Source: Escherichia coli
GTDB taxonomy: Bacteria; Pseudomonadota; Gammaproteobacteria; Enterobacterales; Enterobacteriaceae
DNA: 64,000 nt
Assembly (NCBI RefSeq): GCF_050320075.1
Contig: NZ_CP190018.1
Strand: one strand, 5' to 3'
The notes below the pieces were generated by a model. It saw only the letters and a list, made by a program, of their open reading frames with translations. It searched no databases and was not told the DNA's origin. The first letter of the stretch is position 1. Each line of letters opens with the position of its first letter. Below are positions 1 to 61,494 of this stretch, piece after piece. The translations under genes and the position numbers were made by a program.

Positions 1-442
1 CGAAGTGAAAAAAGAAGATATGTCGATGCAGGCGATTCGTCACTGGGGCGAAACACACAGTGAAGCCGAGGTTCGCGAGCTGTTGGAACAGAACCCGTCT
101 TTCGTCTTCTTTAAACCGCAATCTTTTGCACCGGTGAAAGGGGCAAGTGCGGTGCCGCTGGTTGGCCGTGCTTCTGTTGCCTCCGATCGTTCAATTATTC
201 CGCCAGGTACTACCTTGCTGGCAGAAGTGCCGCTGCTGGATAATAACGGCAAATTTAACGGTCAGTACGAATTGCGTCTGATGGTGGCGCTGGATGTCGG
301 TGGCGCAATCAAAGGCCAACACTTCGATATCTATCAAGGGATCGGGCCGGAAGCCGGGCACCGCGCAGGTTGGTACAACCACTATGGACGTGTCTGGGTG
401 CTGAAAACGGCTCCGGGCGCAGGTAACGTCTTTAGCGGCTGA
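1..442 (+). CDS. mltA: membrane-bound lytic murein transglycosylase A, C-terminal part (5' end outside window)
   Basis: Frame open from window start to stop at 440-442; translation recognised as MltA C-terminus; followed by tcdA as in E. coli. Confidence 0.8.
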   Translation, partial: EVKKEDMSMQAIRHWGETHSEAEVRELLEQNPSFVFFKPQSFAPVKGASAVPLVGRASVASDRSIIPPGTTLLAEVPLLDNNGKFNGQYELRLMVALDVGGAIKGQHFDIYQGIGPEAGHRAGWYNHYGRVWVLKTAPGAGNVFSG

Positions 443-3458: not shown

Positions 3459-3664
3459 AAAAAAAAGCACCGCAATTAGGCGGTGCTACATTAATCACTA
3501 TGGACAGACAGGGTAAATGTACAGGAAGTGAAAAAAGGTAGCTTTGCTACCATGGTCTGAATCGCAGACCAATTGCAAACACAACAACACAACATCACAA
3601 CCGTAAGCCAAAAGTTCACCAGAACACGCATTCCGATAAAACTTTTCGTTCCGGCTCAGGAAGT
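3459..3664 (-). ncRNA. gcvB: GcvB small regulatory RNA (Hfq-dependent, represses amino-acid and peptide transporters)
   Basis: Reverse complement begins ACTTCCTGAGCCGGAACGAAAAG and ends in hairpin GCACCGCCTAATTGCGGTGC plus T8; GU-rich stretch GTTGTGATGTTGTGTTGTTGTGTTTGC present; divergent from gcvA. Confidence 0.9.
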
Positions 3665-7473: not shown

Positions 7474-8892
7474 TCACACTTCCTCTATAAATTCAGGTTC
7501 AGTTTGCGGGTAGAAATAACGGTACTGATAATGAATCTGCGCGCGAGCTTCTTCCGGGCTGTTAAATTCCCCTACGCCATACCAACCGAACAGCGCAGCT
7601 CCTGCGACGGTCGTTTCGGCGTCGTCGAGAACTTTTACCGGAATATCAAGCATATTGGCTTTAATCTGATTCCACAATGTGTTGCGACTTCCTCCACCTA
7701 CTAACAATAATTCAGAGGCTTTAAAGTGCCCGATTTTTTCCAGCATCTGTAGATTGCGCTGTAATTGCGCGGTTAACCCTTCCAGCGCCGCGCGATAGAA
7801 ATGCCCCCGCGTGGTATTAAGCGTCACTCCTTGCCAGCCAGCGTTCTGACACGACAATAAATCACACTGCATTTTCACGCCATCCGCGCCAGGCGCGATC
7901 AGACGAGCCTCTTCAATCAACATTTGCCAGGGAGTTTCAGCCGTCCAGAACAGCTTTCTCACCCATTCCAGCACGCCGGATGCCAGCCATTGCATACCTG
8001 GGTTATACAACCCTGCCTGACTATCCAGTTCGCAGGTCGAACCGGCGTACTGACTTAACAGCGAAGTATCAACCTGGGCGCTACGGACCATTAAAATTTC
8101 CCATGTACCGGAAGAGAGCACGGGTTCATTTTGTTCGGCACCAGCGCCAAAAAGGGCGAACTGGGTATCGTGACCTGCGGAAATCACCGGTATGCCAACG
8201 GGTAAGCCGAGCATTGCTGCGGCGCTGTTCTGTAACGTACCAATCTGTTCACCCGCTTCCACCAGACGAGGGAAGAGTCGGCGTGGAATACCGGTGGCTT
8301 GTAAAATTTGCGGACTGAAATCGCGTTGCTGGATATCCAGCATCTGGCTGGTTCCGGCCATCGTGATATCAGTAGTGAATTCGCCGGTTAAACGGTGGTT
8401 AATCAGCGACGAAATAAACAGCCAGGCGTGCGCGCGTTCCAGCAGTTGTGGATGATTTTCTTTCAACCACACCAACTTATATAACGTATTGAAACTAAAG
8501 GCTCCGACGCCAGAAATAGCCTGCAACTGCTGTGCGGAGATCAACCGTTCAATATTGTCCATTACCGCTGCTGTTCGCGGACATTTCCAGCTAATGATCG
8601 GATAGAGCAGATTGCCTTGCTTATCTACCAGAGCGCCATCCACACCAAAGGTGGTGACGGCGATACCGCGGATGTGGCATTCAGTCAGTTTACTATTGAT
8701 TTGCCGACAGCAATCAGCAAAGCGTTGCAAAATGGCGTCTAAAGACCACTGGTGCCAGGTGTTGTTTTCCATCGCGATATCGCTGGCATTAGGCGTTGAG
8801 GCGCGGGCAACAATTTTTCCCTGCCGATTAACCGCGATGGTCCTGACATTGGTCGCGCCACAGTCGAGTACCAGGATAACTTCTTGTTTCAT
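7474..8892 (-). CDS. fucK: L-fuculokinase (FGGY kinase)
   Basis: ORF 7474..8922; start placed at [15 protein letters not shown] giving 472 aa. Confidence 0.9.
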
Positions 8893-8910: not shown

Positions 8911-8978
8911 GCCGGATAACATTGCTTATCCGGCTAACCACTCTTGCTTGTTCAGGCCCGGTAGCCGGAGCGACCGGG
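8911..8978. repeat. REP-like palindromic hairpins in the fucI-fucK intergenic region
   Basis: GCCGGATAA-cattgc-TTATCCGGC (8911-8934) and CCCGGT-10 nt-ACCGGG (8957-8978). Confidence 0.45.
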
Positions 8979-9000
8979 CATCACATCAGGGAGTAATGTA

Positions 9001-10776
9001 TTAACGCTTGTACAACGGGCCGTAGTTCTGGCAAGCGCGATAATCCTGGCCTTCAATATCCATGCCGTGCGCGGCCCAGGCAGAAGGACGATACACTTTG
9101 GTCTCTTCAACGTTGTGCATACATACCGGGATACGCAGCATGGAGGCAAGAGTGATAAAGTCTGCGCCAACGTGGCCGATGGTTAGAACCCCGTGGTTAG
9201 CGCCCCAGTTCGCCATTACCGAGTACACATCCGTAAACGGCCCTTTACCGGTGAGGCGCGGTGCAAACCAGGTGGTTGGCCAGGTTGAGTTGGTGCGTTT
9301 GTTGAGGATGTCATGCACATCCTTCGGCAATTCCACGCTCCAGCCTTCCGCGATTTGCAGTACCGGTCCCAGGCCTTTGATGATGTTGACACGAGTCATG
9401 GTGAACGGGACGCCGCCTTCGGTAAGGAAGCGGGAAGAGTAACCGCCGCCACGGAAGTATTCGTGGATCGCCGGGCACCATTCGGTAGCGGCGAGGCAAG
9501 CGTCAGCCTCTTGCTGAGAGATTTCCCAGTGCGGCTTCATCGTCGGGTTACCTTCGCTGTCGCGTTGTTTACAGGAACCGTCCAGCGCAGCAGAACCGGA
9601 GTTGATCAAATGGATGATGCCGTGTTCTGCCAGTCCGTCCAGTTTATGCCCCGTTACACGCTCAATTGCTTCTGGTGACCAGTAGGTACGCACATCAGCA
9701 AATACCTGAGCGGTGCCGGTGAGCTGGTGACCCATTAGCATTGCCACGCCGTTAAGACTGTCGTTTTCGGTCGCCACGACAAAGGGTTCGCGCACGCCAT
9801 TCCAGTCAAATGAACTGTTAAGGATCGCTTCGGCGGTGTCGCCATTGGGATATTGATCGGTCCAGTGACGTTGTCCCTGGAAGCCCGCAGCGATGGCGTT
9901 GTAGCCAAGTGATTCTTCCACGCGACCAATATCGGCCAGTTTGCTGTTGCCTTGCATCATGTCGCGGATACACATTGCCATCAGTAAACTTTCGCGCAGA
10001 ACTGCGCGGCTTTGCTCGGCATTGCGTTGATACTGTTTGTTATTTTCATCTTCGCCATAGCGGAAGTTTTTATCAGCCCAGGCCAGCGCCATTTCCAGTT
10101 CGGCTTCGTCGTAAATCTTCTGATCGATACGGCGACGCAGTTCGGTCATATCCACCGCCTGGACTTTCATTCCCAGCCAGGATTCAAAGAAGTTGTGATC
10201 AACAATAGAACCGGCGATACCCATCGAAACGCCGCCCAGCGACAGATAGCTTTTACCTTTCATGCTGGCGACGGCCAAACCGGCGCGGGCAAAGCGCAGC
10301 AGTTTTTCTTCAACATCAGCAGGAATCGATGTGTCATCGGCATCCTGAACGTCATGACTGTAAATGGAGAATGCCGGGATACCTTTCTGGCTGTGAGCTG
10401 CCAGAGCCGCTGCCAGGTAAACAGCGCCGGGACGTTCAGTGCCGTTAAAGCCCCAAATGGCTTTCGGGCGGGTTGGATCCATGTCGATGGTTTCACTGCC
10501 ATAGCACCAGCAAGGCGTTACCGTAATGGTGAGGCCTACATTCTGGCTGCTGAATTTTTCTTCGCAAGCAGCGGCTTCAGCCATACCCGCGATACAGGTA
10601 TCGGAAATGACACACTCGACGGCAGCTCCGCAGGCATGGCGCAGTTTCTCGGTCAGCAGTGCGGCCGTAGCTTTCGCCATATTCATTGTTTGTTCTTCAA
10701 GCGACTCACGAACACCCATGCGACGACCGTCAATAACCGGGCGGATACCAATTTTCGGTAAGCTGATTTTTTTCAT
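9001..10776 (-). CDS. fucI: L-fucose isomerase
   Basis: 591-aa ORF recognised as FucI. Confidence 0.93.
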
Positions 10777-21077: not shown

Positions 21078-21623
21078 GTGGACGATTTGACCGCACAAGC
21101 CCTGAAAGATTTTACTGCACGCTACTGCGATGCGTGGCATGAAGAGCATAAAAGCTGGCCGTTGAGTGAGGAACTGTACGGCGTTCCTTCACCGTGCATT
21201 ATTTCAACCACCGAAGACGCCGTATACTGGCAACCCCAGCCGTTTACCGGGGAACAAAATGTAAACGCGGTTGAACGCGCTTTTGATATTGTGATACAAC
21301 CCACAATTCATACCTTTTATACGACTCAGTTTGCCGGGGATATGCACGCGCAGTTTGGCGATATTAAACTGACATTGCTGCAAACCTGGAGTGAAGACGA
21401 CTTCCGTCGGGTGCAGGAAAATCTGATTGGTCATCTGGTGACTCAGAAAAGGCTAAAATTGCCGCCCACGCTATTTATCGCGACGCTGGAAGAAGAGTTA
21501 GAGGTGATCTCGGTGTGTAATCTCTCCGGTGAAGTGTGTAAAGAGACGCTGGGAACACGTAAACGGGCGCATTTAGCCTCAAATCTTGCGGAATTCCTTA
21601 ATCAACTTAAGCCTCTTCTGTAA
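21078..21623 (+). CDS. syd: SecY-interacting protein Syd
   Basis: 181-aa ORF recognised as Syd. Confidence 0.9.
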
Positions 21624-21833
21624 TCCAAATACCCCATCTGGTTGTGAGAGATCTCTTACAGACTCTGTAGGAGATCGCCAGGAAATAAGCGATTACTTAA
21701 AAAGATAAGAATCGTTATTTTCATTTAAAATCAATATATTGCTTGTAAATCCTTAACTTTCATATGAAATTTTCCTTAAGGCATTGTCTGTAAGCGCCTT
21801 GTAAGACTTCGCGAAAAAGACGATTCTATCTTC

Positions 21834-22200
21834 GTCGACAGGGAGTCAGACAACGAAGTGAACATCAGGATGATGACACTTCTGAAGGACACACCAGGAT
21901 GGTGTTTCAGGGAAAGGCTTCTGGATGAAGCGAAGAGGATGACGCAGGACGCGTTAAAGGACACCTCCAGGATGGAGAATGAGAACCGGTCAGGATGATT
22001 CGGTGGGTCAGGAAGGCCAGGGACACTTCAGGATGAAGTATCACATCGGGGTGGTGTGAGCAGGAAGCAATAGTTCAGGATGAACGATTGGCCGCAAGGC
22101 CAGAGGAAAAGTTGTCAAGGATGAGCAGGGAGCAACAAAAGTAGCTGGAATGCTGCGAAACGAACCGGGAGCACTGTGAATACAGTGCTCCCTTTTTTTA
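21834..22200 (+). ncRNA. csrB: CsrB sRNA (CsrA-sequestering)
   Basis: About 365 nt with reiterated CAGGATG/AGGATG/AGGA motifs (at least 8 exact AGGATG plus many GGA variants); ends in intrinsic terminator GGGAGCACTGTGAATACAGTGCTCCC plus T7 (22163-22199); 5' end approximate. Confidence 0.9.
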
Positions 22201-22244
22201 TTCCTGCTATCCTTCGCGGCAGTTTTTCTTATTGAGGTTGCTTT

Positions 22245-22574
22245 ATGACCACTCATGACCGCGTTCGTCTCCAGCTGCAGGCGCTTGAAGCATTACTGCG
22301 TGAACATCAGCACTGGCAAAACGATGAACCCCAGCCGCATCAATTTAACAGTACCCAACCGTTCTTTATGGACACCATGGAACCACTGGAGTGGTTGCAG
22401 TGGGTGCTGATCCCGCGAATGCACGATTTGTTAGAAAACAACCAGCCGTTACCGGGCGCTTTTGCCGTTGCTCCCTATTATGAAATGGCGCTGGCGACGG
22501 ACCACCCGCAACGCGCGCTTATTCTGGCTGAGCTGGAAAAACTGGATGCTCTTTTTGCGGATGATGCGAGCTAA
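22245..22574 (+). CDS. yqcC: DUF446 family protein
   Basis: 109-aa ORF recognised as YqcC; stop overlaps truC start. Confidence 0.85.
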   Translation: MTTHDRVRLQLQALEALLREHQHWQNDEPQPHQFNSTQPFFMDTMEPLEWLQWVLIPRMHDLLENNQPLPGAFAVAPYYEMALATDHPQRALILAELEKLDALFADDAS

Positions 22575-61128: not shown

Positions 61129-61341
61129 ATTTTGCGAGCAGCATTCCTGATTTTAAACGTGAACGCCGCTGGAAGAATTATCAGGTATAGAATGGCGTTG
61201 GGTGCTTGAGGCTGTCTGGCGTTAAGCATTCGCGAGGTTCCAGATGGACAAAAGCCCCAGGCGATATTTCTATCAACCTGAGGCCAGCGTTCGAACCTAA
61301 GCAATTCGAATGTTAGTCTCTTCTTTGCAGGGAGGCAAGAC

Positions 61342-61494
61342 ATGCTGACAAAATATGCCCTTGTGGCAATCATCGTACTGTGTTGTACAGTACTGGGATT
61401 CACGCTGATGGTAGGCGACTCGTTGTGTGAGTTGAGTATCAGAGAACGTGGTATGGAGTTTAAGGCAGTTCTCGCTTACGAATCGAAGAAGTAG
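61342..61494 (+). CDS. Hok-family type I toxin (50 aa, HokE/HokX-like)
   Basis: ATG 61342 preceded by GGGAGG; product [50 protein letters not shown] has one TM helix and the conserved Hok C-terminal region; below the ORF-track size cutoff. Confidence 0.8.

Follow-up and report, generated by a model that had tools for sequence, protein, structure and literature searches.

Background

Regulatory RNAs that sequester a protein have their founding example in CsrB of Escherichia coli, which has been under study since 1997. The classical tally of its imperfect repeats is about 18. In the K-12 strain, multiple CsrA dimers are bound by this RNA and CsrA is antagonised in vivo (PMC7652899, PMC5027483). 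The described RNA is 369 nt long and carries GGA sites numbered 1-22, five of them within +263..369 and the last one inside the terminator hairpin (PMC5027483). The major cuts made by RNase E in its decay fall at A327 and A331, immediately ahead of the terminator, and CsrA sites at GGA 20 and 21 were reported to shield CsrB from RNase E (PMC5027483). According to the literature on the K-12 RNA, transcription is activated by BarA-UvrY together with IHF, and the protection by CsrA is overcome by CsrD, which is itself activated by unphosphorylated EIIA-Glc. As for transcription, a UvrY site, TGTGAGAGATCTCTTACA, is centred at -183/-182, with TGTAGGAGA located 5 bp downstream, and a putative IHF site lies between two zones of UvrY cross-linking, of which the promoter-proximal one (-56..+25) was without direct in vitro binding (PMC4682653).

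Here, we analysed a stretch of E. coli DNA of 64,000 nucleotides (contig NZ_CP190018.1 of assembly GCF_050320075.1), referred to as the window. A sequence-only reading of the window had assigned positions 21834-22200 to CsrB on the grounds of a dense array of GGA motifs. Our results indicate that the plus-strand segment 21834..22202 is almost certainly E. coli csrB, encoding the 369-nt untranslated RNA CsrB that acts as a CsrA sponge, with the function carried over from K-12. The csrB gene at 21834..22202 is already known and presents no new biology.

Identity and genomic context of the csrB locus

In a covariance-model scan, the Rfam CsrB family (RF00018) matched 21843..22202 on the plus strand with 382.9 bits (E = 2.2e-111), the gathering score of the family being 71 bits. 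The match was full length (model positions 1-356 of 356) and not truncated. The annotated csrB of K-12 MG1655 (b4408, NC_000913.3 2924156..2924524) aligned end to end with 21834..22202, and 367 of the 369 nt were identical (99.5%). The gene is located in the intergenic segment 21624..22244, between syd upstream (21078..21623, +) and yqcC downstream (22245..22574, +), and the wider context (queF and syd on one side, yqcC, truC, yqcA and gudP on the other) is the same as in K-12. Together, the RF00018 match, the near identity to the K-12 gene and the syd/yqcC context bear out the earlier assignment, including the scan with the CsrB model which had been proposed as its check. The limits given in that reading were essentially exact: the RNA as annotated in K-12 corresponds to 21834..22202, so that the 3' end lies 2 nt further.

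CsrC and the Rsm RNAs have the same GGA-array architecture and share with CsrB the Rfam clan CL00106, which would be compatible with the stretch being the paralogous sponge CsrC or some other member of the Csr/Rsm clan. However, cmscan keeps the best family of a clan where matches overlap, and the best-scoring clan family here was CsrB, along all 356 model positions. The 99.5% identity to K-12 csrB and the position between syd and yqcC also speak against a paralogue, as does the upstream inverted repeat, which is present in its csrB version TGTGAGAGATCTCTTACA and not in the csrC version TGTGAGACATTGCCGATA. On the basis of the scan, identity, locus and repeat version, an origin from CsrC or another clan member was rejected, its probability being practically negligible, and the segment is referred to as csrB from here on.

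GGA motifs and predicted fold of the RNA

The full RNA (21834..22202) contains 22 GGA triplets. Within the Rfam-matched part (21843..22202), 21 GGA, 14 AGGA, 8 AGGATG, 6 CAGGATG and 9 CAGGA[A/T/C]G motifs were counted. The bias towards GGA is strand-specific, because TCC occurs only twice on the csrB strand of the same segment. Elsewhere in the window, the plus strand contains on average 5.0 +/- 2.5 GGA per 360 nt and never more than 13. Mononucleotide shuffles yielded 12.0 +/- 2.7 GGA, 3.7 +/- 1.9 AGGA and 0.23 +/- 0.46 AGGATG, as compared to 21, 14 and 8 observed. The sequence-only reading had mentioned about 18 motifs of the CsrA-binding type; this number equals the classical tally of imperfect repeats and is higher than the number of strict AGGA (14) but lower than that of all GGA (22).

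Five GGA are situated at or past 22096, and number 22, at 22168, is part of the terminator stem. In both number and layout, the GGA sites are therefore equal to those of the published CsrB (PMC5027483). Numbering along the 22 GGA positions places sites 19-21 at 22119, 22129 and 22147 (22119..22149, +). Neighbouring sites are mostly 10-32 nt apart; for the K-12 RNA, the literature states that one CsrA dimer can bridge two sites at a distance of 10-63 nt.

The minimum free energy of the RNA was -119.9 kcal/mol versus -97.6 +/- 5.2 for shuffled sequences (z = -4.3). The mean predicted unpaired probability reached 0.81 at GGA positions versus 0.44 for the whole RNA, and 19 of the 22 GGA were mostly unpaired in the predicted MFE fold. 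In this prediction, hairpin loops hold nine GGA and other single-stranded stretches ten; the remaining three, among them the GGA of the terminator stem, are mostly base-paired.

Upstream regulatory region

The binding site of UvrY (of the BarA-UvrY system), an 18-nt inverted repeat TGTGAGAGATCTCTTACA, was found at 21643..21660 as an exact match to the sequence reported previously (PMC4682653). With +1 at 21834, the centre of the repeat (21651/21652) falls at -183/-182, as published, and thus provides an independent confirmation of the 5' end of the RNA. The sequence TGTAGGAGA follows at 21666..21674. It forms part of a longer block, TGTAGGAGATCGCC (21666..21679, 5 bp downstream of the inverted repeat), which resembles an additional UvrY half-site and is kept as TGTRAGAGATCGCC in most of 14 aligned genera.

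Further downstream, the sequence AATCAATATATTG at 21729..21741 (-105..-93) matches WATCAANNNNTTR, which we take to be a fit to the IHF consensus, and its ATCA....TT is conserved across genera. Judging from this consensus and from the location between the two cross-linking zones, 21729..21741 probably represents the putative IHF site described for csrB.

A probable -35 element, TTGTAA, is located at 21799..21804 (+), and a probable -10 element, GATTCT, at 21822..21827 (+; -12..-7). Both assignments draw on conservation, as TTG of the former and A at -11 of the latter are invariant in 14 genera. The two hexamers are separated by a 17-nt spacer and the position of GATTCT fits +1 at 21834; its similarity to the -10 consensus is weak (3/6). 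A consensus sigma-70 promoter scan of 21500..22400 detected no promoter-like site. Since csrB transcription is activator-dependent, this miss was not counted as evidence against a promoter, and weak hexamers would suit a promoter of such kind. The probable -35 element falls inside the UvrY cross-linking zone at -56..+25. The same zone contains a direct repeat, TGTAAG-N5-TGTAAG (21789-21794 and 21800-21805), which overlaps the probable -35 element and resembles UvrY half-sites.

Terminator and RNase E segment

A scan for Rho-independent terminators identified one at 22167..22199 (+), consisting of an 11-bp stem, a 4-nt loop and a tail of seven T. The stem-loop, GGGAGCACTGT-GAAT-ACAGTGCTCCC, occupies 22167..22192, contains 11 pairs (7 of them G-C) and is followed by TTTTTTT. 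It agrees with the terminator helix of the Rfam consensus. The strong intrinsic terminator noticed in the sequence-only reading is a real feature of the locus. Compensatory changes across genera were observed in 6 of the 11 terminator pairs; at one of these, for example, A-U is replaced by G-C or C-G in five sequences.

Between the terminator and the hairpin presenting GGA 21 lies an unstructured segment, GAAACGAACC (22157..22166, +), which includes the predicted 'necessary cleavage site' of RNase E. The published cleavage residues A327 and A331 correspond to 22160 and 22164, where the window likewise has A. The surrounding AAACGAA (RNA positions 325-331) is invariant in an alignment of 16 CsrB sequences.

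Conservation in Enterobacterales

Homologues were sought by scanning genome contigs with an exact 18-mer taken from the most conserved csrB block. Approximately 50 loci in Enterobacterales were obtained. Some 25-30 further matches occurred in unrelated phyla (Cytophagaceae, Firmicutes, Actinobacteria and others); judging from the organism names, these were taken as chance matches and set aside. A sample of 15 of the approximately 50 Enterobacterales loci, representing 13 other genera, was examined. Full-length CsrB was found in all 15, with scores of 202-382 bits and with 19-27 GGA per homologue. The gene order syd-csrB-yqcC-truC was retained in 14 of 14 loci with enough flanking sequence. Similarly, every homologue with enough flank possessed a UvrY-type box approximately 200 nt upstream of the Rfam start, with 0-4 mismatches.

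In the 16-sequence alignment, the block GGAAAAGTT.TCAAGGATGAGCAGGGAGCA (the region of GGA 19-21) and the hairpin CACCTCCAGGA.GGAG are invariant. The consensus fold of these sequences comprises 50 pairs and places GGA in hairpin loops. Compensatory double changes were detected in 19 of the 50 consensus pairs, including those of the terminator and of several hairpins with GGA in the loop.

One of the genomes, Enterobacillus tribolii DSM 103736 (NZ_QRAP01000005.1), contained three full-length csrB copies in tandem, all on one strand between syd and yqcC. In the extracted locus (L081:7700-9299), the copies are located at 7700-8078, 8311-8690 and 8922-9299 and score 232-239 bits each. A direct-repeat finder gave a period of approximately 611 nt for this triplication. 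The RNA parts of the units are 98-99% identical and the spacer/promoter parts only 82%, and a separate UvrY-type inverted repeat precedes each copy by approximately 200 nt. Nothing relevant on tandem csrB or on Enterobacillus was found in a literature search.

The arrangement of the locus allows for yet another interpretation. csrB is on the same strand as both its neighbours and only 42 nt separate it from the start codon of yqcC, and the stretch could in principle belong to the yqcC-truC-yqcA operon as a long structured 5' leader, or to syd as a 3' UTR. Several observations argue against this. The RNA is ended before yqcC by the conserved, covarying strong terminator (11 bp, T7), while the region between syd and +1 contains a dedicated conserved UvrY box, an IHF-like site and -35/-10 elements. 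In E. tribolii, promoter, RNA and terminator are triplicated as a self-contained module, and the K-12 annotation treats csrB as a discrete ncRNA of 369 nt. The terminator and the presence of dedicated promoter elements led us to reject the leader or 3' UTR reading, which we consider extremely improbable. Some read-through of the terminator into yqcC is possible.

Coding potential

The open reading frame (ORF) track of the window lists two minus-strand entries at csrB, 21776..21964 (62 aa) and 22041..22256 (71 aa), and a plus-strand ORF of 46 aa is present at 21858..21998, starting with GTG at 21858 and ending with a stop at 21996-21998. Given these ORFs with GTG or ATG starts, the region might encode one or more small proteins, either as a coding locus or as a dual-function RNA. 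In favour of this, both the 46-aa and the 62-aa ORF remain open in E. whittamii, as does the former in E. albertii. Nevertheless, a Pfam search of four overlapping ORFs gave no match at E <= 1, and no CDS at csrB is annotated in K-12, in a strain 100% identical over the 661 nt around the locus or in any of 25 records drawn from the whole ranking of matches. Codon-wise mapping furthermore revealed a frameshift in ORF 22041..22256, followed by a stop at codon 17, in both E. albertii and E. whittamii. ORF 21776..21964 runs into a stop at codon 51 in E. albertii, whereas in five other genera (Citrobacter, Yokenella, Trabulsiella, Kosakonia and Enterobacter) the stop is at codon 15, and the start codon of the 46-aa ORF is gone in every non-Escherichia genus examined. 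That the ORFs stay open within Escherichia is explained by the nucleotide identity of 94-98%. What is conserved at csrB are GGA motifs and base-paired stems, not codons. We therefore regard a protein product of the 62-aa, 71-aa or 46-aa ORF as highly improbable.

The sequence-only reading had likewise found no credible ORF and had considered both minus-strand entries artefacts of the non-coding RNA, and this is what the missing Pfam matches, the missing CDS annotation and the interruptions in relatives indicate. The long open stretches on the minus strand arise because the plus strand is purine-rich and GGA-rich (G+A = 230/360).

A special case is a CsrB with dual function in Escherichia only. 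In E. coli, E. whittamii and E. albertii, the 46-codon ORF is open and retains the start codon, and it might give rise to a genus-specific micropeptide. Such a product would be very unlikely, since the start is lost elsewhere, no family match was obtained and sequence identity explains the persistence of the ORF. An untranslated CsrB remains our reading of the locus.

Variation among E. coli genomes and annotation of csrB

Of 5426 complete E. coli genomes, 5425 contained a homologous stretch, and 5176 had an RNA of at least 99% identity. Many E. coli strains match the 661 nt around the locus at 100%, which means that the allele of the window is a common one. When the 661-nt query including the promoter was considered, only 771 genomes were at least 99% identical, compared to 5176 for the RNA alone. 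Polymorphism at the csrB locus is thus located in the promoter spacer.

Two substitutions distinguish the csrB of the window from that of K-12. At 21885, C in K-12 corresponds to A here (GCAGGA to GAAGGA); the change is situated 2 nt before GGA site 3 and leaves this GGA intact. At 22173, G in K-12 corresponds to A here, by which a G.U pair in the terminator stem becomes A-U. Upstream of csrB, six further substitutions separate the two strains (21693, 21735, 21738, 21742, 21747 and 21751). Five of these six are found within 17 nt (21735-21751), either inside the degenerate NNNN of the IHF-like site or directly behind it.

Several exceptional arrangements were encountered. One of the 5426 complete E. 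coli genomes was without any csrB match, one match was located on a plasmid, and a few E. coli genomes had matches at two places. In the human isolate E. coli MARGA_3 (NZ_CM170101.1; L082:1815-3278), a transposase of the IS3 family is inserted inside csrB, approximately 91 nt from its beginning. In this strain, yqcC is contiguous with no more than RNA positions 92-369, which represents a natural disruption of csrB.

As for annotation, no feature of any kind was present at csrB in 25 of 25 sampled E. coli RefSeq records, nor in the strain with 100% identity over the 661 nt. K-12 MG1655 was the only inspected record in which csrB was annotated ('small regulatory RNA CsrB'). Because the inspected RefSeq records other than K-12 lack this feature, spurious ORFs of 45-71 aa appear in ORF tracks. 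If 21834..22202 is annotated as csrB, these false genes disappear and the conserved intergenic block upstream, with its UvrY and putative IHF sites, is explained at the same time. Two other small RNAs were detected in the same window, both at full length: the sRNA GcvB at 3459..3664 (-; RF00022, 199 bits, E = 1e-46) and the sok antitoxin RNA at 61200..61357 (+; RF01794, 111.7 bits, E = 1e-24). The latter indicates a chromosomal toxin-antitoxin locus of hok/sok type at this position.

Proposed mechanism

By analogy with the K-12 allele, from which the RNA of the window differs at 2 of 369 positions, CsrA sequestration, activation by UvrY and IHF, and RNase E/CsrD-dependent decay may all be transferred to this locus. 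According to this model, transcription would start at 21834 from a weak promoter of the sigma-70 type. Phosphorylated UvrY would activate it from the inverted repeat at 21643..21660, possibly aided by IHF, which would bend the intervening DNA. Transcription would stop before yqcC is reached, at the hairpin with its T-tract (22167..22199). In the resulting RNA, the approximately 22 GGA, mostly exposed in short hairpin loops or linkers, would bind many CsrA dimers with high affinity. Decay would be initiated by an RNase E cut in the unstructured GAAACGAACC (A327/A331, i.e. 22160/22164). CsrA bound at GGA 20 and 21 could shield this site, and CsrD might override the shielding when glucose is present.

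Comparison with known systems

Within E. coli, the closest described counterpart is CsrC, which is shorter than CsrB and has fewer GGA sites. The two RNAs are alike in possessing a CsrA-sponging GGA array, in their UvrY-activated transcription and in their CsrD/RNase E-dependent decay. They differ in locus and sequence, and in csrC the UvrY repeat is less symmetrical and no apparent IHF site is present (PMC4682653).

Outside E. coli, RsmB of Erwinia/Pectobacterium is a homologue belonging to the same Rfam family as CsrB, and the Erwiniaceae homologues in our data (Pantoea, Mixta and Izhakiella) matched RF00018 with 203-219 bits. RsmB, RsmY and RsmZ are functional analogues of CsrB, i.e. sponges with GGA loops which act on RsmA/RsmE under the control of GacA, the orthologue of UvrY. 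The Rsm RNAs of pseudomonads are, in contrast, much shorter than CsrB, and because their hosts are without CsrD, these RNAs are stabilised by proteins of the CsrA family (PMC5027483).
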